From Methanobacteriota archaeon (GTDB lineage Archaea; Thermoplasmatota; E2; DHVEG-1): a stretch of 64,000 bases of DNA. Position 1 is the stretch's first letter, and every line of letters begins with the position of its first letter. Location: positions 75,904 through 139,903 of the forward strand of contig CAVYNH010000004.1 of the NCBI GenBank assembly GCA_963769885.1, read 5' to 3'. Below the pieces are notes generated by a model, which worked only from the letters and a program-made list of their open reading frames with translations, was not told the DNA's origin and did no database searches. Position numbers and translations under genes: made by a program. Shown in pieces: positions 7,028-32,828 of the stretch.

Positions 7028-8977
7028 TCATAATGCTTTTTTCAAAGTAATTATTTTATTAACAATATTCTCAATTGATTTACACGATTTTCCGTCATTC
7101 TTAGCTTTCTTGATTAACTCCTCAAAAACTGTTGGGTTCTTATCAACTTGTTCAGAACGAAGGCAAAATTGTTTACAACACCCTGCTTTGAAAGTGGTGA
7201 CAAAATCTAACCCCAGTTCACTTGACATCGTTTGTGGTAAATTCTGCTTGAAACATGCATATTTATCTGATATATTGTCGGGCCAATCTACTTCCGGTTC
7301 GCCACATAACTTTAACAATTTTCGATTTTCAATAGGCGTTGATTGAGGTTCTTCAGGAGGATGAAAATCACCATCCCATAATGGATATACTAATATTCCC
7401 ATTTTTTGGAATATTATTAGTGGTTTGTCCATGTTTCCTTTGCCCATACAGGGTATTATGGGGATCCCTTCTGTCTCCATATTTATACCGATAGCTGCAG
7501 CCGTTCCCATGAGTGCAGCCTTATCGCTTTCCCCCTCGACTAAAATTACTAAATTAGAAAAAAAGCCTTCGTTCATAATCGGCGTCATAATTATTCTCAA
7601 ACGGGCTTCTAAACTGTGCGGATTTAAGGTACCTTTTGGTTTTCCATCCGCTCGGTCAATAATTTCAGCTACCTCAAGTAAATTTGTCGATGTGATTTTT
7701 GCCTGTTTTGGTTTTGCTGGATCTATTGTCTTCTTCCGTATTGACCTTATTTGGTCAAGTTTTTTAATATCAACAAATAAAGGAGAGTGTGTAGTGTAAA
7801 TAATCTGTATTTTATCGATAATTTCTCCAATTCTACCTGCTGCCAATTCTTGCAAAATATTTGCAAAATGACGCTGTCTGATTGGATGCTGATATAATTC
7901 TGGTTCTTCGATACCTATTATGAGGTTTGGCAATTTTGCCTTAACAGTAGGAGGAACCCCTGGTTCGCCTTCTTTTTTTTCTTCTGTCGATTGTGTTATT
8001 GCTAACTGTTGAAATAATGTTAAAATAAAAGCTCGTTGCAATCCATGGCCCACTCGATCTATTGATGATGGATAGTCATCTTCTATTAGTTTGATGTCTG
8101 CGATTGGTGATGGAATTTCTATTGTTTTTTGGAAATTCCAGTTTAATTTGATACCCGCATCAGGAATAAACTGTTTTAGGGCAGTATTCAAATTTTCTTC
8201 AAGAACGCCCAGCTCAGTGAAATCTTTAGCTTGTAAAATTTTTTCATATTCACTTTGTGTATTTTCCCCCAATCTGACCAGTTTTGTGTTTCCTGCTAGT
8301 GTTTTACGAACTACTAAATCCATAAGTTCAGTTAAGGGTGTGCCCTTTTTTTCCTCTGCATCCTCTGCAGCATCACGAACGGCAGGAATTAAAATGAATT
8401 TTGTAAATTTTTCAAGATGACTGTTTCCAACAGCATTGAATCCAAAAAACTGACCATCATCTCTACGTCTTGTGCAAGAAGCTTTATTCGCCTCCTCCCA
8501 TTGCTGAAGGAAACTTTCGCATTCTTCCTTGTTAGTATAATCTGGTAACCCAAAAGTTTCCTTCAATGAAGAGTATTCTTTTCTAAGTTGCGATGTGCCA
8601 TGAGCAGATCTAAAAGAATCAAAAGCTGGATTCCGAAGACTTTCGCCATAATATTTTTGTATTGACTTTGGAGTCTGAAACGTAATTATTTTTTGAACAG
8701 TAAGTGTATTGTCGAAAATATATTTATTAAAAAGGGTTTTTTCGTCTTGGTTCAAGTCTTTGTATCTGACGGATATGATTATTTCATTTGAAGTCTCATG
8801 ATTATAAAAATCTTCTTCAGTTATAGTATAATTTATTTCGTAGAAGATTCTTAGAGCTGTTAAAAAGGTTGATTTCCCTGATCCGTTTGGACCTATCAGG
8901 GCAATGAGTTGTTGACAATTAAGTGTTTCATCAACGATACAGCGAAAATTTTGTACCCGTAAACTTTCGATGATCAC
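7028..8977 (-). CDS. OLD-family ATP-dependent endonuclease (N-terminal ABC-type ATPase + C-terminal Toprim)
   Basis: Walker A LIALIGPNGSGKSTFL near N-terminus; C-terminal Toprim-like motifs LVILVEGESDKAAL and PLWDGD; 649 aa; GTG start in track frame. Confidence 0.8.
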   Translation of the reverse strand: MIIESLRVQNFRCIVDETLNCQQLIALIGPNGSGKSTFLTALRIFYEINYTITEEDFYNHETSNEIIISVRYKDLNQDEKTLFNKYIFDNTLTVQKIITFQTPKSIQKYYGESLRNPAFDSFRSAHGTSQLRKEYSSLKETFGLPDYTNKEECESFLQQWEEANKASCTRRRDDGQFFGFNAVGNSHLEKFTKFILIPAVRDAAEDAEEKKGTPLTELMDLVVRKTLAGNTKLVRLGENTQSEYEKILQAKDFTELGVLEENLNTALKQFIPDAGIKLNWNFQKTIEIPSPIADIKLIEDDYPSSIDRVGHGLQRAFILTLFQQLAITQSTEEKKEGEPGVPPTVKAKLPNLIIGIEEPELYQHPIRQRHFANILQELAAGRIGEIIDKIQIIYTTHSPLFVDIKKLDQIRSIRKKTIDPAKPKQAKITSTNLLEVAEIIDRADGKPKGTLNPHSLEARLRIIMTPIMNEGFFSNLVILVEGESDKAALMGTAAAIGINMETEGIPIIPCMGKGNMDKPLIIFQKMGILVYPLWDGDFHPPEEPQSTPIENRKLLKLCGEPEVDWPDNISDKYACFKQNLPQTMSSELGLDFVTTFKAGCCKQFCLRSEQVDKNPTVFEELIKKAKNDGKSCKSIENIVNKIITLKKAL

Positions 8978-9232: not shown

Positions 9233-10366
9233 ATGCCGATTAAGTTTCTACATACGGCTGACTGGCAAATGGGTATGAAAGCTCTTCAAGCTGGCGAGAA
9301 AGCAAAGGAGGTTCGTGTTAAGCGTTTTGAGACAGCGAAGCGAGTTATTGAATTGGCAAAAAATGAATCTGTTGATTTTGTCATTCTTGCTGGTGATTTA
9401 TTTGAGCATCATGATATTGATGAATTAGTTGTCCGGAAAACAGTGGATATTCTGAACAACTTCAATCCCATTCCAGTCTTTATACTGCCAGGTAATCATG
9501 ATCCTCTTGTTTCCGGCGGCATCTGGGATCGGCATAGCTGGCAGCAAGTTAAAGGTCATATTACACTACTTCGAGAGGCTAAAGAAACCTTGGTCTCGGA
9601 TCAGGTCGTCATTTATCCTTCGCCATTATCCCAGAAACAAAGTTCGACCGATCCGACAGAATGGATTCCAACCAGAACTCCTGGCGATAATCGTATTAGG
9701 ATTGGGATCGCGCACGGTTCTTTAAACATATTACCTGAGCGTACCAACTTTCCTATTGCAGCTGACCGTGCGGATAAATGTTCATTGGATTGTTTGGCTC
9801 TTGGAGATTGGCACAGTTTCCTACAACATGGTCGGACTGTCTATCCTGGTACTATGGAGCAGACAAGCTTCACCGAAAAAGATTCGGGAAACGTTGCAAT
9901 AGTAGAGATTAAGAAAGTGGGTAATGAGCCGATTGTTTTTAAAAAACATATTGGACAATTCCTTTGGAGCGAGCATCAACCAACTATTCAGGACAAAACC
10001 GATGTTGATGGTTTTCGTGCCTTACTCTTGAAACAAGCATCGCTTTCCAACCAACTACTTAGGATAGCACCGATAATCACTCCAGAAGCCTCTTCAGACG
10101 CTATATCCGAACTAAAAATACTTCGAGATGAGCTGTTTGAAGAATCATTCTTTCTCAACTGGCCAGATGAAATGTTTAATACCACCCTTGATACCTCAGC
10201 GCCCTTACCGGACGGACTACTATCTAATGTGGATATTGACTTCGCAAACATTCTCAATCACCGGATTCCAGATGGACCTGGCCAGGAGTTCGCATCAGCT
10301 GACTTAACAGTGGTCCTTGAGGCACGAACTCTTCTCAGACGAATTGCAAAAGAGGGGGCAAAATGA
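9233..10366 (+). CDS. SbcD/Mre11-like calcineurin-type metallophosphoesterase (nuclease subunit-like)
   Basis: Motifs FLHTADWQMG (motif I with Gln where SbcD has His), ILAGDLFEH, LPGNHD, IAHGSL, GDWH; stop overlaps start of downstream gene (ATGA at 10363-10366). Confidence 0.75.
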   Translation: MPIKFLHTADWQMGMKALQAGEKAKEVRVKRFETAKRVIELAKNESVDFVILAGDLFEHHDIDELVVRKTVDILNNFNPIPVFILPGNHDPLVSGGIWDRHSWQQVKGHITLLREAKETLVSDQVVIYPSPLSQKQSSTDPTEWIPTRTPGDNRIRIGIAHGSLNILPERTNFPIAADRADKCSLDCLALGDWHSFLQHGRTVYPGTMEQTSFTEKDSGNVAIVEIKKVGNEPIVFKKHIGQFLWSEHQPTIQDKTDVDGFRALLLKQASLSNQLLRIAPIITPEASSDAISELKILRDELFEESFFLNWPDEMFNTTLDTSAPLPDGLLSNVDIDFANILNHRIPDGPGQEFASADLTVVLEARTLLRRIAKEGAK

Positions 10367-19093: not shown

Positions 19094-20023
19094 TTATAAT
19101 GTCTCCCCAATCATCAATGAATTTTGGGCAACCGATTCATATACAATATGATAAAAGAAATCTTTAATACTCTTCGAGTTCAAAAAAATTATTGGAAGTT
19201 TCCTCACATAAGGAGGTTCATTCCATATATTATTATAGATTAAAATTTTATTACTTTGTCTAGTTTGCAAATAAGATGGCAAAGGATATTCATAGACTAA
19301 CCAAGGAACTGGAGTTAATTTGAAATTCTCCACGTTTCCTTCTGTTAGTGTTATTTCAGTTGGTTTAAATTCACTTACCATTAAATCTGCATTGGTTACT
19401 ACCACTGGAACAAACCAAAAATTATATTTTATGTCATCACGAAATTGACAGTTTTTCATATCGAGTTCATCGAGTAGTTCAGCAAAATTTGATTTTACCC
19501 CGAATAATGCATGAGATACTTCAGATGAGGCTTGATAAATCGATGTTGAATCATTCCTAATATTTTCTTTTTTCAGCATTTGACCTTTTTTATCGTTATC
19601 ATGTCTTAAAACAATTTGATCATAACAATAGGGTATTTTTATATTTGAAAAATGTTTAAAAAAATTATATTCATTCTCTATTTGCTGAGGTAATTCAATT
19701 GCCCAAGATTCAATTGGTGCATCCTTTGTTTTAAAGAATATCCATTTGTTTTTTGCCGAATATGATTTCTTGCACTCTAAAATTAATTTGACAGTTGCTC
19801 TATCACGATCTGGTAATCTTTTGGTTGCTACAATGTCAGCAGCTCTTGACGCTCCTTTTTCCGATGTATATCTTTGTAGAGAATAAGGTGATTCGAGGTC
19901 GCAAGACCAGTGTAATTCGGATAATTTTTCAGCAACCGCTTTTCTAAAGAAAATCCCTTCACGAGCAATCGCATTTTGGATTTCGATAAGGTTATTCAAA
20001 GGATTATTATTTTCATCATTCAT
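19094..20023 (-). CDS. Hypothetical protein, possible PD-(D/E)xK nuclease-like core
   Basis: 309-aa track ORF with GAGGT RBS upstream of ATG 20023; RAADIVATKR...VKLILECKKS fits a D...E-x-K pattern; weak, motif-level only. Confidence 0.4.
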   Translation of the reverse strand: MNDENNNPLNNLIEIQNAIAREGIFFRKAVAEKLSELHWSCDLESPYSLQRYTSEKGASRAADIVATKRLPDRDRATVKLILECKKSYSAKNKWIFFKTKDAPIESWAIELPQQIENEYNFFKHFSNIKIPYCYDQIVLRHDNDKKGQMLKKENIRNDSTSIYQASSEVSHALFGVKSNFAELLDELDMKNCQFRDDIKYNFWFVPVVVTNADLMVSEFKPTEITLTEGNVENFKLTPVPWLVYEYPLPSYLQTRQSNKILIYNNIWNEPPYVRKLPIIFLNSKSIKDFFYHIVYESVAQNSLMIGETL

Positions 20024-20909
20024 CCGGTTTTACCTCAAGAAATAGAATGGTCGGGTTGTTTTTGATGGTTTGGGTAGTTCCTTCGATAGACTTAAAAGAA
20101 AGGATGGTTAATAGGTAGTGAGGTGAGAAGATTTCTCCTGAACCAACAAATGCTGAAATAATAGCCAAGCTTGAAAGAATTGAATGGAAAGCAGGGCGTT
20201 CTTGGTTGATTGCCTGGGTCTTCGGAGGGTTTGCGCTCGTCGTCGCCGGATCCAGGTTCCTGAAAGACTATACAGCCTATTCATTCATGTGGGGTTATAC
20301 GCTCCTAATTACATGCCTTGGAGTTATCATCATGGCTGCTGCCTTTATTGGATGGATTTGGCATTACCGAAAAAAACCACAGGAACCACATTGCCCACTT
20401 ACAGAGAGATCGAACAAATTATAAAGAAGAATCCCTCTCTGAATTATAGAGGATTTTTGATGGATGAAAGTAAGGGGTTCAAATCCTGGGATGATTATTT
20501 TTCCTATTGGGAGAAGAAAGTTCAGGATCTTCGAAAGGAGATGTTGTCACCTGATGCTTGCGGTATGATTTTATCAACTTTCCACACCGGCTTTGGCGTG
20601 TTGACGGTGTTGTGTCATTGCTCTGAAGAAAAAATGACGGGTTATTATCTGAAGTATGACCGTTGAACAGCAAACTTGATGTTGCTTTATCCCTTGCCAG
20701 AACAAAATATATGGACGAACATCCTCCGCTTACGGAGAAATTTATTGAAGCCCTTGGGAATTTGATAAGACAAAGGACAATATCAAAAAAACCGTGACAA
20801 GGCTTGATCCGACTTGTTTCGTAGAATATGAATCTATGGATTAATATTTGGTGTTTCAGCGGGATGCCAATCGATATCAAAAGTAGGGAAGCAGCCCGGT
20901 GGATTCGTG

Positions 20910-21189
20910 GTGCTCGTACCCGCTCCAGAAGGCAACCGCGTGGGTAGCGTTTGCGGAACCCGGGGTGTGCCTCGAACATCCTCTTAGCGCTGTGGGATTT
21001 TAGCATGGTCTCAGCGGCTTGGATGGAGTACCGCTTGGGGACGTTGACCTGGAAGAGGATGTGGTCTTCGGCGAAGCCGAGTTCGCCGAAGCCAAACCCG
21101 TGGTGTTCCAGATCGTGGAACGCCTGGGTGCAGATGTCGATGTGGCTTTGTCTGCTGAAGCAGTGGTAGCGGTTTTTGGTCACAAACAT
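20910..21189 (-). pseudogene. Degenerate IS200-like TnpA (HuH Y1 transposase) remnant
   Basis: Inside track ORF 20479..21366(-): NRYHCFSRQ...GELGFAEDHILFQVNVPKRYSIQAAETMLKSHSAKRMFEAHPGFRKRY resembles TnpA (YHC...PDHVHLLVSIPPK...LKG.SAR.LF.EFP) but HVH is HIL and the Tyr region is lost; GC-rich. Confidence 0.35.
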
Positions 21190-21452
21190 CGTGGTCACCC
21201 AGTTGTTGCGGGTGTCACCCGCAATCTTTTTAGAGCTGCCGCTCGATACCATCTCCATAAATGTATTTTCTCCTGTCGCGCCTTTACAGGGGGCAGGCGG
21301 ACGCCTGCCCGCGCGCGACAAAAAACAGTATATCGAGTGTTTTGGGAAAAAGATGGCGTCTTTCATCAGCGAGTCTTCACTGCGGTTCAGACCGCATAGT
21401 ATTCCCAGTCCAGCAAAGAACCCAAAGAGATGGAACCAACAAAGAGAGCTGG

Positions 21453-26963: not shown

Positions 26964-29900
26964 CTACAGGCCGCTGACGCTGAACACAAACGCGGAGACG
27001 AGATGATGCTGGTCGCTGTCGATGAGGACGTTCCCCTGCTGGTCGCAGAATGCCGCATAGACCCGATATTGCCCATTCCCATGTCTGAGGTCATCGGTTT
27101 TCACAAGGCCATGGAAGATGCTGTCAAGGGCCAACAGCCCGCCGCTTTGAATGAGCCGCGGGGTTTGCTCGTCAACCGCCTTCGTATCCAGCATCCATTG
27201 TCCAGTCCGCGGGTCCTGGAACTCCACCTGGATCAGGAGGTAGCCCCGGATGTCCGTGATCCCAGTGTTCTTGATCTTCGACTGGTTCCGGCACTGCACG
27301 ACCAACCGAGGCTGGCATCCAATCCCCTGGAACTCATAGGAGGAGATAGCGACGTATTCATTCCCGGTCGGCGTGGTCCCGCTGATGTCCCTGCTGCTAC
27401 GTAGGCAGAGTTTTGTCACTCCGATCCGATTGATCCAGCCGAGCCCCTGGCTGTTGAGGGAGAGATCGTTGAACCCGTTGACGAAGTTATTAGTGTTGAA
27501 CTGCCCGCCGTTCCCTGAATACAGGCTCTTGTCGTAATCCGTGACGATGAGAGGATTATGGGGATAGGTCGGCTGTCCGTTCTGGACCGTGATCAGGAAG
27601 TCTGTCGTCGAGTAGTCACCCATTTTATAGAGGCCTAGTGTGGCGGCGTCGATGATGGCGTTCGACGGGATTCGTGTCGTGTCGAAGAAGAGGAATCCTC
27701 GGTAAAGGGAGTATGGTCCGAACGGTGGATTGAATTTTTGCCCGATGAGGATGGAGGCGCCAGTGTTGTCGACGGTGCCTCGGGTGCTTGTCCACGCGGT
27801 GTTGTAATTCGTGTTCGAGTTGTAGATATAGCCATCCGTTGCTTGGGAGTAGAGCGTGATGCTGGGATCGACCTCGGGGAATGCGTCGGTCAGTTCAATG
27901 ACCTCTCCTTTGGTGTACGAGGTTTTGAGCGTACCGACGCTAAGGGTCGCATGGGCGGCGATGTCGAAGTAGAATCCGGTCGCGGTTTGCTCGTTGCCGA
28001 GGTTATCGACGGCCCTGACGCTCACGGGATATCGCCCGGTGAGCCAGGTGTCGTTGAAGTAGCACTCGTATCTGTTCGGGACGCCAGTGACGAGGGTCAT
28101 TGGGATCTGTGTTTCTTTCATTTGTTGGGATTGGTTCGGTAACTGGATTGCTGCTGTTGCTGCCTTCACGCCGCTGATGTTATCCATGATGGTGGCTTGG
28201 ATGTGGATTTGTGAGCCGAAGCCACTCAGTGAGGGCGTGACCAAGACTGACGTGATGTACGGTCCGTCGGCGTCGAACGTGGCATGGTGGGTCTCGGTGG
28301 AGCTTTGATTGCCCTGGATGTCGATGGCGTGGGCGGAGAAGGTGTAGGTGCCGGAGAGTCCGGTGAAGGTGTGGGCGAGCTTGTGGACGCTGTTGTTGTA
28401 GGAGGCTTGGATTTCTTCCCAGCTTAATGCCCTGGCGTAGAGCTGCGGCTCGTCGAGGAGGCCGCGGAAATGGTGGTACTCCGCCGTGTTCTCTTCTGAG
28501 AGGCAGGTCTCCTGGTTGTTTGTGATGTCGCGGACGGTGCCGGTGGTGCTCTGGTCGAATTCGCCGTCGACGTAGAGTCGAAGCTCGGTGCCCTGCCGGA
28601 CGTAGGCGATGTGATGCCATGCCTCGGCGGTGATGGGGATGGTTCCGGTGAGGCTGGTGGTTTGGCCTGGGAGTGATCCTTGCGAGGTGAAGATGCGTGC
28701 GTATGAATTGGAGATGCCGCAGTAGTATCCCTGGCCGGTGGCTTCAGGCTGGTTGCTCAGGATGATGCGGATGCTTGGGGGCTCGAAGGAGACGGGGACG
28801 TTCACCCACGTCATGAAGGTGAAGTCGCCTGTTCCTAAGTTCAGGCTAGGGTCTTTTCCGCAGTGGACCGCATCGTCGATGCCGTCAAAGTCTAATGCCT
28901 TTCCGAATTTCCCGGTGACAATATCGGATGGCCCAAGGCCTCCCCAGAAGACCCCGTTGTTGTGATACGTCGAGTCGTCAATCACACTGGTATCGTTGTA
29001 GTCGTCCATGGGCCAGTAGCCGCGGAGGGTTCTGTTCCAGTCGATGAACGCCGCTGTCTGGAGGCCGTCCTCGACGGTGGCGTTCACTTGTGCCCAGCTC
29101 TGGTTGATCATCGCGTTATCTGGCGGTGTGGGCGGGACAAAGTAGATGATGGGGGTGGGCGTGACCGTGAAGTTGAACTCGTTTGAGTAGTTGGTGTTGT
29201 TCGCGTTGTCGACGGCCCATACCCGGCCTCTGTATTCGCCGCTCTGCTGGGTGTCGGAGAAGGTGAGGAAGTAGCTGTCGTTGATGATGTGGGTCATGGG
29301 GTATTCAGCCGTCGAGTTGTCGGGGGCGGTGATGTTGACCCAGGCGGTGTTGATGCCGCTGTCGTTGTCGGCGATCACTGCCGCTATTGAGGCGTTCATG
29401 CCGACGCCGACGACTTCCGGCGTGACGTCGAGGTACGTGATCTTCGGCGGGGTCATCTCGAAGGTGATGTTGAGCTGTTTTGTTATGGAGTGGAGTTGGT
29501 GTGTATCATCGGTCACGGTCAGCGTGACGTTGTATTGGCCTACGTTTTCATAGAAGTGGGTCACGTTTCGACCATTGGTGATGTTTCCATCCCCGAAATT
29601 CCACGTCCAATCGGTGATATGGAGGCCGTCGCAGGCGGCCGAGGTGTCATTGAAGACGATGGGGTAATCCGGGTTAACGTAGGGGTAGTTCGGGACGCTG
29701 AGGTTGTAGCTAACGTTGAGCGGCATGACCGAGACGTTGACTGAAATCTCCTCTATGTAGTTATTCGCATCCGAGACCCTGAGACGAACGACGTTGTCGT
29801 CTCCGGCTCTTTCGAAGTGATGGACCAGGGTCTGTTCATGGTGGGGGATCAGCTCGTTGTTTATGGTCCACTCATAGTCGACGGGGGCAATCGCGCCGGC

Positions 29901-32828
29901 TACCTGCGCGGCATAGATGGAGTCGATACCGACGACGGACGGCATCGAGGTCGCTCCGAGCACGCTCTGTGCGGATGCCGCTGCGGAACAGGACATCAAC
30001 AGATCCAACGAGAACTTGACCGTGACCGTGAACGGATCGGAGAATACACTCCAGTTTCCGTATCGGCTGACGCCAGGCATGGCTCCATCGAAGAGATACC
30101 CTTTGAAGTCCTCGCGGGCTCTCACCACGATCGTGCGCGATCCCGCCCAATGGTAGACGTGGGATGCGTCGCATGGGTGGTCTTCAACGATCGGCCCGAC
30201 GCGATCATTGTCATTTGTCCACTCATAGTTCCAGTACCATTGATATTGTAATGGGTCTCCTTCGTCATCATCGGTCCCGGTTGAACTGAATGTGGCTTTC
30301 TCTCCGGCATGGACGGTGGTCGGGCCGGTAATGTCCCCTGGCTTGTTGGGGTCGACATTGCTGCGCTTATCTAAATGAACGAAAGGAACCTGCGTCGCGA
30401 TATCATTCGGGCGACTGGTTTCATCCCTGATAATATTGTCAATTCGTCCGGAGGAATTGTACAGCTCGAGGTGGAGTTTATACCAGCCGGCGTTCACCCC
30501 ATTTACCGGCGGCAGCGTCATCGTGATCGTCTTCTGAACGCCGTCGGAGGTCGCTTCGAAATCAAAGTATTTCCACGTGACGTCCTGGCAATCGTCATTT
30601 AGGAGGCTGGCTTTGATTCTCACCTTGTCTGAGGGGAGGGTGGATGTCACGGTGAGCGTCGCCTGAATAGAGTCATCCTTTCCATCCTGATCGATGTCAA
30701 CAACGTTAAAAGTCACCGGTCCGTCGAACTCGCAGTCGGGGTTCAGCATGTAATATTTGAAGATATCCCAGATCAATTCCGTAGAGGCGACGACGTCGCT
30801 GTGATCGATGTATTGCATGCTGTCGCCGTCGGTATAGTTGTCGCCGGCTCGATGCCATTGATCCCAGGAGTATCCGATATATTTTGGTTTGCCAAAAATG
30901 TTCTTGCCGACGACGCTGTCACCCTTGAACAGACAGGTCGTATTTGCTTGGGGAAATGTAGCATTGACCGTCCCCTGTTCTGATCCAAAACCAGATCCAG
31001 CTCTGACCCAGCAATCGTAATTCGAATAGCCGCTCTCTTTTCGAATGGTATCCAATGTTTTTTCTCTCTCTTTTTCTGTTGTGAAAATCGACACTCCGCA
31101 GTTCTTCTGGTTAAAGCCGAGTTGGTCGAGGATCAGCCAATGTACTAGGGTATTACCCAGACTACCTGAATGATTGTCGACGTAGTGTCGAGCGCCTTGG
31201 AATCCGTGTTCCTCCGCCGTTGTGAAAAGGAACGTGAGGTTGTATTTTGGTTTGATGGAGGGATGGTCTTTGACGTATTTTGCTATGGTGAGGACGATTG
31301 CGCACCCGACTCCGGAGTCGCCGGGTGTCTGTCCCCACATGCCGTCGTACCTATTTGAGAAGATCCCAACAGCGTTACCGGGGCTTCCGCCGGGAATCGA
31401 GATGTTGGCATAGACGTCGTCCCCTATCGTCCCTGGATGTCCCGGCGTCTCTTCGAGGTAATCCTGTCTTGCATCGCCGGTAAGAGTCGTGGTGTCATGA
31501 TTCTCGCTTAAGAAATCGCCAGCCGTGTAATTTAACGTCAGTATTGGCAGCATATAGGTAGAATTTTTTTCGGTATTTTGATCGACAACAAAATGGTAGT
31601 CATGCGAATCATATAAAATAACAGCTGTGCAATTGAGTGCCGGACAATTGATGAAATTAAAGAATTGTGTGACGAGTGTGGCAGCAAATAAGACATGAGC
31701 AAAACTTACTTTGGCATGGATGGCTTCGTCCTGGTGGGTGGGGAAATTCACGAGGGTTTCACCTAATGCGATCGTCTTGTATAATGGGTGACTATACCAT
31801 GTCACATTCAACAGTTCACTGTGATCCGGGATTCTACAAAGGAGAACAAATGGCTGGTACGCGGGATAAATACCAAGGAAATCATAACGGAAGGTCAGAT
31901 CCGTCATGAAGTCTCCAAAGTTATCTACTAAGACGACAGGGTAGCTTGACAGGCGTTCTTTCACCTCGTTCCCAGATTCGTTATCAATCCAAAGAACGGG
32001 GTAACAACAATTTGAGGTATCAGTAATGTATTCGATTCCTTGATCATTGTAGTCAACGATGATGACCGCTGTTGCGTCAGTGATGGTATCCAGCTTTGCC
32101 TGCGCTCCTGGCAGATCGTCAATCAGGAAGACGCGGTCAATCATATAGTCTGGTGGGCAAGGATCGTCGGGTCCTATGTAATGAACAATTCCGAAGATCA
32201 CTTTGAAAATATAGTCAGTCAATTTCCCGAATTCACGAACGGTGTAGGAGCCTCTCCCTCCAAATAATTTTCCGAGCTCAAAGGGGACGATCTTGGTATT
32301 ATCGAAGACATAATGCTTTGTCCAATTTTCGCTTCGCGAAGCGGCATTGTCTTTACTTGCTTCTATTGTGTTTTTATAGGGGATATATCCGATTTCCTTC
32401 CGTGAAATAGGATTCATGAATGGGTACGTCGGTGCTCCAGGATCTGTGTTGACGCTCAAGTGAAAATCGGTGTCGTTGATGATGCATGAATAGTTTCTAT
32501 GCGCTTCATTGATGTAGGCAAGTCGCTCTGTTTTTACATTCCCCTGGCCGAACATGGTTTCAAGTCGAGGCACCAGTATTTCATTTGCAGTGTATATTCC
32601 TCCTTTTGAGTCAAAGTTCCTTCCCTTGGGGATATCAGTTTGGTTGTATGCATCGTATATCACATTGGTCAGATTCCCTAACACTTCCCAGAGATAATCA
32701 TAGTCGAGGCCTTCTGGCACAGCCACGGCTTTTGAGACGCTGTTCTTTGGGTCGAATTTGGTTACCATTAGACTGGTTGCCACGAGCATCAAACAGACTA
32801 CTAGTCCGAAAAATTTCCTACTTACCAT
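26964..32828 (-). CDS. Giant secreted multidomain surface protein (M28-peptidase-like, PKD-like and LamG-like domains; many N-glycosylation sequons)
   Basis: 1954 aa; GGAGG RBS; signal peptide MVSRKFFGLVVCLMLVATSLMV; FLFTTAEEHGFQGARHYV (M28-like EE motif); WNFGDGNITNGRNVTHFY and YQWYWNYEW (PKD-like); LRGYWPMDDYNDTSVIDDSTYHNNG...LRLYVDGEF (LamG-like). Confidence 0.8.
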   Translation of the reverse strand: MVSRKFFGLVVCLMLVATSLMVTKFDPKNSVSKAVAVPEGLDYDYLWEVLGNLTNVIYDAYNQTDIPKGRNFDSKGGIYTANEILVPRLETMFGQGNVKTERLAYINEAHRNYSCIINDTDFHLSVNTDPGAPTYPFMNPISRKEIGYIPYKNTIEASKDNAASRSENWTKHYVFDNTKIVPFELGKLFGGRGSYTVREFGKLTDYIFKVIFGIVHYIGPDDPCPPDYMIDRVFLIDDLPGAQAKLDTITDATAVIIVDYNDQGIEYITDTSNCCYPVLWIDNESGNEVKERLSSYPVVLVDNFGDFMTDLTFRYDFLGIYPAYQPFVLLCRIPDHSELLNVTWYSHPLYKTIALGETLVNFPTHQDEAIHAKVSFAHVLFAATLVTQFFNFINCPALNCTAVILYDSHDYHFVVDQNTEKNSTYMLPILTLNYTAGDFLSENHDTTTLTGDARQDYLEETPGHPGTIGDDVYANISIPGGSPGNAVGIFSNRYDGMWGQTPGDSGVGCAIVLTIAKYVKDHPSIKPKYNLTFLFTTAEEHGFQGARHYVDNHSGSLGNTLVHWLILDQLGFNQKNCGVSIFTTEKEREKTLDTIRKESGYSNYDCWVRAGSGFGSEQGTVNATFPQANTTCLFKGDSVVGKNIFGKPKYIGYSWDQWHRAGDNYTDGDSMQYIDHSDVVASTELIWDIFKYYMLNPDCEFDGPVTFNVVDIDQDGKDDSIQATLTVTSTLPSDKVRIKASLLNDDCQDVTWKYFDFEATSDGVQKTITMTLPPVNGVNAGWYKLHLELYNSSGRIDNIIRDETSRPNDIATQVPFVHLDKRSNVDPNKPGDITGPTTVHAGEKATFSSTGTDDDEGDPLQYQWYWNYEWTNDNDRVGPIVEDHPCDASHVYHWAGSRTIVVRAREDFKGYLFDGAMPGVSRYGNWSVFSDPFTVTVKFSLDLLMSCSAAASAQSVLGATSMPSVVGIDSIYAAQVAGAIAPVDYEWTINNELIPHHEQTLVHHFERAGDDNVVRLRVSDANNYIEEISVNVSVMPLNVSYNLSVPNYPYVNPDYPIVFNDTSAACDGLHITDWTWNFGDGNITNGRNVTHFYENVGQYNVTLTVTDDTHQLHSITKQLNITFEMTPPKITYLDVTPEVVGVGMNASIAAVIADNDSGINTAWVNITAPDNSTAEYPMTHIINDSYFLTFSDTQQSGEYRGRVWAVDNANNTNYSNEFNFTVTPTPIIYFVPPTPPDNAMINQSWAQVNATVEDGLQTAAFIDWNRTLRGYWPMDDYNDTSVIDDSTYHNNGVFWGGLGPSDIVTGKFGKALDFDGIDDAVHCGKDPSLNLGTGDFTFMTWVNVPVSFEPPSIRIILSNQPEATGQGYYCGISNSYARIFTSQGSLPGQTTSLTGTIPITAEAWHHIAYVRQGTELRLYVDGEFDQSTTGTVRDITNNQETCLSEENTAEYHHFRGLLDEPQLYARALSWEEIQASYNNSVHKLAHTFTGLSGTYTFSAHAIDIQGNQSSTETHHATFDADGPYITSVLVTPSLSGFGSQIHIQATIMDNISGVKAATAAIQLPNQSQQMKETQIPMTLVTGVPNRYECYFNDTWLTGRYPVSVRAVDNLGNEQTATGFYFDIAAHATLSVGTLKTSYTKGEVIELTDAFPEVDPSITLYSQATDGYIYNSNTNYNTAWTSTRGTVDNTGASILIGQKFNPPFGPYSLYRGFLFFDTTRIPSNAIIDAATLGLYKMGDYSTTDFLITVQNGQPTYPHNPLIVTDYDKSLYSGNGGQFNTNNFVNGFNDLSLNSQGLGWINRIGVTKLCLRSSRDISGTTPTGNEYVAISSYEFQGIGCQPRLVVQCRNQSKIKNTGITDIRGYLLIQVEFQDPRTGQWMLDTKAVDEQTPRLIQSGGLLALDSIFHGLVKTDDLRHGNGQYRVYAAFCDQQGNVLIDSDQHHLVSAFVFSVSGL

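Follow-up and report, generated by a model that had tools for sequence, protein, structure and literature searches.

The 64-kb window, by which we mean the whole stretch of 64,000 nucleotides that was analysed, carries a pair of overlapping genes encoding an SbcD/Mre11-like metallophosphoesterase, referred to below as the nuclease, and a Rad50/SbcC-like ATPase. Together they form a two-gene cassette with an OLD-family gene as its divergent upstream neighbor:

7028 to 8977, minus strand: OLD-family ATPase-TOPRIM nuclease (AAA_15, 1.6e-41; OLD-like_TOPRIM, 3.8e-15; PADLOC Old, 1.9e-53)
9233 to 10366, plus strand: ORF of 377 aa, SbcD/Mre11-like metallophosphoesterase and putative nuclease subunit
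10363 to 13053, plus strand: Rad50/SbcC-like ABC ATPase of 896 aa, its start overlapping the nuclease stop (ATGA, 4 nt)

Directly downstream of the cassette stands an IS110-family transposase gene (13302-14279, plus strand; DEDD_Tnp_IS110 and Transposase_20), and an independent Logan contig stops inside it, as expected of a repeat. Farther along, an ORF of 377 aa (15106-16239, minus strand) gave a weak SIR2-like match (PADLOC SIR2, 9e-5) and no Pfam match, contains a GAGxS motif and two CxxC pairs by eye, and may represent a diverged SIR2-type defense effector. The window also holds an IS200-like Y1 transposase gene (20479-21366, minus strand; Y1_Tnp, 7e-7) and, in its GC-rich part, an ORF of 1954 aa (26964-32828, minus strand) with Peptidase_M28, PKD, Big_13 and Laminin_G_3 domains, which probably encodes a large surface protein. 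Base composition changes along the window in a strongly mosaic fashion; measured in 2-kb steps, GC lies between 0.32 and 0.58. Two 309-aa ORFs (16549-17478 and 19094-20023) were considered as repeats and discarded after comparison showed them to be unrelated.

Fold and active site of the nuclease

The sole Pfam domain in the nuclease is the generic Metallophos domain (PF00149; 51.3 bits, gathering threshold 21.5, E = 2.5e-13), and more specific family models score it far lower than they require, with 43.8 bits against TIGR00619 (sbcd; cut-off, 77.65) and values far under the cut-offs of NF041029/30/31 (Mre11) and NF008206 (SbcD). Searched against PDB, the family profile matched Mre11 of T. maritima (5e-26), SbcD of E. 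coli (5e-22) and the P. furiosus protein (4e-19). An AlphaFold (AF2) model of the nuclease (pLDDT 95.2, pTM 0.85) agreed with this assignment, since the top 50 Foldseek matches in PDB were all Mre11/SbcD, with probability 1.0 and E values down to 8e-15, and included full-length Mre11 of Rad50 complexes (3tho_B and 3qg5_C) aligned over more than 400 columns. The modeled protein comprises a phosphoesterase core (about residues 1 to 240), a capping-type beta/alpha region (about 240 to 310) and C-terminal helices (313 to 376), and the alignments with full-length chains suggest that the latter are the counterpart of the Rad50-binding region. None of the models in PADLOC-DB v2.0.0 recognizes the nuclease, the best match reaching 7e-5 over 70 residues and the next 8e-3; a phage origin was considered and discarded, the PHROG matches being weak (9e-6 and 5e-8). 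In the literature on SbcCD-like pairs and defense, we found no paper on this nuclease clade.

The 377-aa product begins with MPIKFLHTADWQMG, and its active-site motifs are laid out along the gene (plus strand) as follows:

9260 to 9268: motif I, D10-W11-Q12, with Gln12 (CAA, 9266-9268) at the position of a metal-ligand His
9392 to 9397: motif II, G54-D55, containing the bridging Asp; D55 invariant in 141 sequences
9491 to 9502: motif III, G87-N88-H89-D90; H89 and D90 invariant, N88 in 140 of 141
9713 to 9715: motif IV, His161, invariant; its counterpart in T. maritima Mre11 is the His within 'FMGHFT'
9803 to 9814: last motif, G191-D192-W193-H194, with Asp192 in place of the first His of the canonical GHxH

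The initial annotation had proposed that a Gln replaces the metal-binding His of motif I, and the alignment with SbcD/Mre11 that it had called for bears this out. Gln12 falls on the His of D-x-H when KFLHTADWQMG is set against KILHTSDWHLG of T. maritima Mre11/SbcD (HMMER alignment), and the register is identical when the profile of 141 family members is aligned against PDB. A second, independent assembly (Logan ERR10755944) holds an identical nuclease protein, which together with the conservation of the residue in homologues excludes a sequencing error or pseudogene as the source of Gln12. With Gln12 aligned at a ligand position, the first coordination shell must, on this mapping, differ chemically from that of characterized SbcD/Mre11, presenting an amide where those enzymes present an imidazole.

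The same annotation had described the remaining phosphoesterase motifs as intact, which is true of GDLFE (D55), GNHD (N88 and H89) and H161 but not of GDWH, where Asp192 replaces a ligand His. Aligning ALGDWHSF with ALGHIHSF of T. maritima Mre11 places Asp192 on the first His of GHxH and retains H194. By this alignment, Asp192 is a second altered metal ligand, which the initial annotation had overlooked, and provides a carboxylate where a second imidazole is expected. The motif that it had written as GDLFEH extends one residue too far, since position 59 is variable in the family alignment (D52, H42, S16, N15). Measured against the signature of the PF00149 superfamily, the nuclease therefore has the GD, the GNH[DE] and the motif IV His, and departs from it at D-x-H, which reads D10-W11-Q12, and at GHxH, which reads GDWH and keeps the second His only. 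In P. furiosus Mre11, Mn1 is held by D8, H10, D49 and H208, and Mn2 by D49, N84, H173 and H206, with H85 as the catalytic residue; by homology these positions would map to D10, Q12, D55, N88, H89, H161, D192 and H194 of the nuclease.

Conservation at positions 12 and 192

Whether Gln12 is peculiar to this gene was addressed through its homologues. In an alignment of 141 family members that share 28 to 66% identity with the query, Gln occupies position 12 in 113 sequences and His in 21, with no other residue found, so that Gln accounts for 84% of the 134 scorable sequences. Position 192 is divided among Asp (70), His (65) and Glu (6). The rest of the site is fixed: all sequences covering position 10 have D10 there, no exception was seen to D55, H89, D90, H161 or H194, and N88 is kept in 140 of 141. 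Closer to the query, the 120 nearest database homologues (48 to 66% identity) include 111 whose N-terminus is complete, and approximately 108 of these read D-W-Q; GDWH occurs in 119 of the 120. An exhaustive HMMER search over 1.84 billion cluster representatives returned 3888 clusters (50% identity) at E<=1e-3, of which 1484 also pass E<=1e-10, and Gln12 was found in 80% of the best 150 of the 3888 50%-identity cluster representatives. The fully canonical combination, His12 with His192, is the rarest state in both sets (3% of the family alignment and 6% of the best 150 representatives), and at least one replacement of an imidazole by an oxygen donor is seen in 94 to 97% of the family. Copies on plasmids of cultured bacteria fall into the same pattern, Sphingomonas pISP0 and a Burkholderia plasmid encoding HTADWQ...GDWH and a Rhizobium copy HSSDLH...GDWH.

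Mapped by parsimony onto a quick neighbor-joining tree, which makes the counts approximate, position 12 has changed at least 14 times and position 192 at least 10 times, and switching between Gln and His occurs among close relatives with no other change in the active site. The exchange is an easy one, as the codons for His (CAY) and Gln (CAR) are a single third-position change apart. The two positions may also be linked, given that Asp or Glu at 192 accompanies His12 in 17 of 21 sequences versus 53 of 113 with Gln12 (Fisher p = 0.004, a value that ignores shared ancestry), and that Glu192 was found with His12 only; this pairing hints that positions 12 and 192 are balanced against each other.

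As read from these alignments, Gln12 is what most members of this large, horizontally spread family carry, and the gene at 9233-10366 is not peculiar in having it. That only metal-binding residues appear at positions 12 and 192, with the remaining site fixed, points to purifying selection for catalysis and is what would be expected of an active enzyme that admits Gln as an alternative ligand, not of a decayed site. The initial annotation had inferred altered metal coordination or specificity, a proposal that survives insofar as the ligand chemistry differs and falls away as a gene-specific trait, Gln being the majority state in homologues. It had also named frequent occurrence of the substitution in active homologues as an outcome that would speak against its reading; the substitution is frequent by each of the three counts above (84%, 80% and approximately 108 of 111), and the activity of those homologues is putative.

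The partner ATPase and the gene neighborhood of the cassette

The downstream ATPase gave Pfam matches to SMC_N, AAA_23 and AAA_15, and it weakly matched Rad50 models. Alignments show its motifs to be intact and conserved: a Walker A (N33...G36-K37-S38), a Q-loop (W145 and Q148), a signature-like LSxGxxEQ (813-820) and a DD Walker B (844-845). Its best PDB profile match is P. furiosus Rad50, covering both lobes (6e-22), and the best Foldseek match of its model is also Rad50 (7zr1). The AF2 model (pLDDT 84) places head lobes at both ends, joined by helices 205-398 and 479-780, and the ABC head is split by a long antiparallel coiled coil as in Rad50/SbcC. At the modeled apex, the helix breaks at the conserved Pro402 and is followed by a five-strand beta domain (about 428-478, strands 429-474), and neither the 896-aa ATPase nor its aligned homologues contain a CxxC zinc hook. 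AAA_27 (PF13514), which we take to be the YhaN-type domain, covers only approximately 50 N-terminal residues (1-50, the P-loop region). PADLOC matches arise solely through the generic P-loop region, and those to LmuB are weak and partial. The ATPase model further matches PDB entry 9a6c_A, an integrative model of B. subtilis YydD-YydB, in which an SMC-like ATPase is presumably likewise paired with a metallophosphoesterase.

Compared with the SbcCD/Mre11-Rad50 systems of E. coli, T. maritima and P. furiosus, the cassette shares the nuclease fold with motifs II, III, IV and the final His, the overlapping gene order of nuclease then ATPase, and a Rad50-type ABC head with a long antiparallel coiled coil. 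It differs in having D-x-Q for D-x-H and GDxH for GHxH, in a partner that bears an apical beta domain instead of a CxxC hook and DD at Walker B, in NCBIfam scores far below cut-offs, and in its location in defense islands and on plasmids. Listeria comparator records, which were weak matches, encode canonical SbcD together with SbcC carrying a CPVC hook. The gene is a member of an uncharacterized variant of the SbcCD/Mre11-Rad50 type.

The pairing of nuclease and ATPase is kept in 25 of 28 loci, and all-against-all clustering of ORFs from 29 loci recovered the two as the only conserved unit, with no third conserved gene among them and with clusters consisting of the two cassette genes and antisense shadow ORFs. 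Among 83 neighbor proteins of distant relatives, no recurrent family was found by Pfam or PADLOC. The cassette occurs in Eisenbacteria, Planctomycetota, Hydrogenedentota, Acetothermia, Synergistota, Verrucomicrobiota, Methanomassiliicoccales, Methanomicrobiales and others, and also on 115 PLSDB plasmids and in Legionella. The cassette moves horizontally.

Within the close clade, defense genes accompany the cassette in 7 of approximately 9 independent contexts. These include the window itself, with the divergent OLD nuclease gene upstream, the IS110 transposase gene downstream and the weak SIR2-like ORF; loci L024/25, with genes for an SLFN-type helicase, HNH/SRA, a BglII-type endonuclease, a MazG-like protein and OLD; L026/27, with SNF2, UvrD, DUF1156 and pAgo; L034, with a type III-like restriction-modification set, GmrSD and HepT-MNT; L035, with SIR2-HerA and OLD; and the Burkholderia plasmid (L030), with DUF4297-HerA. 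Distant relatives that combine Gln with GHWH have mostly housekeeping neighbors.

We regard the OLD gene in the window (7028-8977, minus strand) as a divergent neighbor, part of the context rather than an established part of the cassette. OLD genes adjoin the cassette in four separate contexts with differing orientations, namely, the window, L024 (14166-16196) with L025 (8340-10316), L035 (12049-13728) and L007 (14556-16535), where the OLD gene resembles a GajA/GajB pair. Between the window and L024, the OLD proteins are 30% identical over their full length and the SbcD-like proteins 64%. This adjacency could be a functional link or merely a shared location in defense islands. A small KTSC-domain gene (70-71 aa) likewise adjoins the cassette in L024 (13836-14048), L025 (7956-8168) and L035 (6770-6985). 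Genes resembling AddB and AddA (PDDEXK_1; UvrD-helicase with PDDEXK_1) follow directly after the cassette in Methanofollis sp. W23 (L028, 13976-20370), and such genes flank it in a metagenomic contig where Ku is also present (L033, 11964-17134); B. subtilis presumably has a similar addBA-sbcDC arrangement.

Proposed mechanism, rival explanations and meaning

We consider it probable that the nuclease is a subunit of a self-contained two-gene module of the SbcCD/Mre11-Rad50 kind in which Gln12 is a normal residue exchangeable with His, and whose likely role is the cleavage of foreign or aberrant DNA, the cassette of the close clade being usually located in defense islands. From the residue mapping onto P. 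furiosus Mre11, we infer that D10, Q12, D55 and H194 would bind metal A and D55, N88, H161 and D192 metal B, with H89 as the catalytic residue, and that Gln12 most likely contacts metal either by its amide group, probably via the oxygen, or with a water molecule in between. Together with Asp or Glu at 192, it would make the site richer in oxygen ligands than that of canonical SbcD, favoring the hard ions Mn2+ or Mg2+ and phosphodiester cleavage. The nuclease would act as a dimer with a two-metal site, its C-terminal helices docking on the base of the coiled coil of the downstream ATPase, whose heads would engage upon ATP binding and whose apical beta domain would dimerize the ATPase in place of a zinc hook. 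In such a complex, the heads would recognize DNA ends, hairpins or blocked ends, and the nuclease would cut under the control of ATP.

It is also possible, in our estimation doubtful, that Gln12, in combination with Asp192, reflects a genuine change of metal specificity or chemistry relative to the repair enzymes SbcD/Mre11, as the initial annotation had supposed for Gln12, for example a preference for Mg2+ over Mn2+, a mechanism with a single metal or a changed balance between endonuclease and exonuclease activity. The exchange of two imidazole ligands for oxygen donors, with at least one such change in nearly all of the family, and the uneven distribution of Asp/Glu192 between His12 and Gln12 sequences are consistent with a shift of this kind, as is the altered metal and substrate specificity of Pnkp from C. 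thermocellum (CthPnkp) when it is mutated at the equivalent His (PMC2190708). In the metallophosphoesterase domain of CthPnkp, the D-x-H residue His189 is dispensable for Mn2+-dependent phosphodiesterase activity, H189D and H189E raise kcat and narrow metal and substrate specificity, and H189Q and H189N reduce activity (PMC2190708). Of the ligands, the motif I His is the one least needed for Mn2+-dependent diester hydrolysis (PMC2190708), and these data mark its position as the most tolerant one for diester cleavage, where oxygen donors can tune specificity; the lowered activity of H189Q argues that Gln is not automatically neutral or a universally good substitute. These were engineered mutants of an RNA-repair enzyme, in contrast to the natural variation seen in the present family, where Gln as majority state and at least 14 Gln/His swaps with the other catalytic residues fixed argue that the two are nearly equivalent and count against a gene-specific functional shift. 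Natural interchange of Gln and His at a ligand is known from another active dinuclear metallophosphoesterase, the E. coli 5'-nucleotidase (UshA), in which Gln254 is a metal ligand that is His in eukaryotic orthologues, although its Gln lies in the last motif and not in motif I and the enzyme acts on nucleotides rather than as an ATPase-coupled nuclease (PMC2843633). That the nuclease is instead a catalytically dead scaffold serving only to bind the ATPase, like inactive subunits of the metallophosphoesterase fold or the SbcD-derived LmuC of Lamassu, seems to us very improbable. Two of its metal ligands are noncanonical, and SbcCD-derived defense systems are reported without the nuclease domain, as in Lamassu (LmuACB), an SMC-like defense-island module in which the SbcD nuclease domain has been lost (PMC12663957). 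In the present family, however, the other ligands and the nonligand catalytic His89 are invariant down to approximately 28% identity and positions 12 and 192 are restricted to metal-capable residues, where a dead site would drift. Lamassu resembles the cassette as an SbcCD-derived SMC-like module of defense islands, with the partial LmuB matches of the partner noted above, and differs in having separate effectors; here the nuclease domain is conserved and neither LmuA nor LmuC is present.

A different question is what the complex is for, and a role in housekeeping repair of double-strand breaks or hairpins, whether orthologous or merely analogous to SbcCD or to SbcEF (YhaN/YhaO), the second and hookless SbcCD-like pair of B. 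subtilis, and with no part in defense, is a serious possibility that we nevertheless judge to fall short of even. YhaO-type proteins presumably have His in motif I; one candidate relative of YhaO, P0268 (408 aa, HAADLHLG), was dropped because it came from an unrelated short metagenomic contig. The AddB/AddA-like genes that follow the cassette in Methanofollis and lie beside it with Ku in L033, and the housekeeping neighbors of distant relatives, would suit a repair function, as would the similarity of the partner to B. subtilis SbcE (YhaN), which lacks CxxC, has a conserved proline in its central domain and is encoded beside the SbcD-like SbcF/YhaO (PMC2811018). By that description, SbcEF resembles the cassette in architecture, with a hookless SMC-like ATPase, a central proline and a metallophosphoesterase neighbor; the AAA_27 match, confined to the P-loop region of the partner, counts on the other side. 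Also weighing against a repair role are scores far under every SbcD, Mre11 and Rad50 equivalog cut-off, a patchy spread across phyla and domains at 55 to 66% identity together with plasmid carriage, and the prevalence of defense genes around the close clade. Between defense and end processing or repair, we lean toward defense for this clade, a preference drawn from gene neighborhood only. Taken further, the nuclease and its hookless ATPase might constitute an uncatalogued, widespread and mobile anti-phage or anti-plasmid descendant of SbcCD that has kept its own nuclease for cutting foreign ends or hairpins, with the oxygen-rich metal site as an adaptation, for instance to Mg2+ activity at cellular concentrations, and perhaps in cooperation with neighboring OLD or AddAB/UvrD-type enzymes; we offer this fuller proposal tentatively and think it rather unlikely to hold.

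The preferred reading, a two-gene SbcCD-like module in which Gln and His are interchangeable at position 12, bears first on annotation, where Gln at the motif I position is not to be taken as a sign of inactivation. From the conservation pattern and gene pairing, we infer an active nuclease working in complex with its ATPase, and if Gln12 is indeed a working ligand, the clade would offer a natural series of Gln/His and His/Asp/Glu swaps for studying first-shell tuning in Mre11-type nucleases. The cassette in defense islands is a more interesting lead than Gln12 itself, being a reasonable candidate for an undescribed defense module derived from SbcCD.
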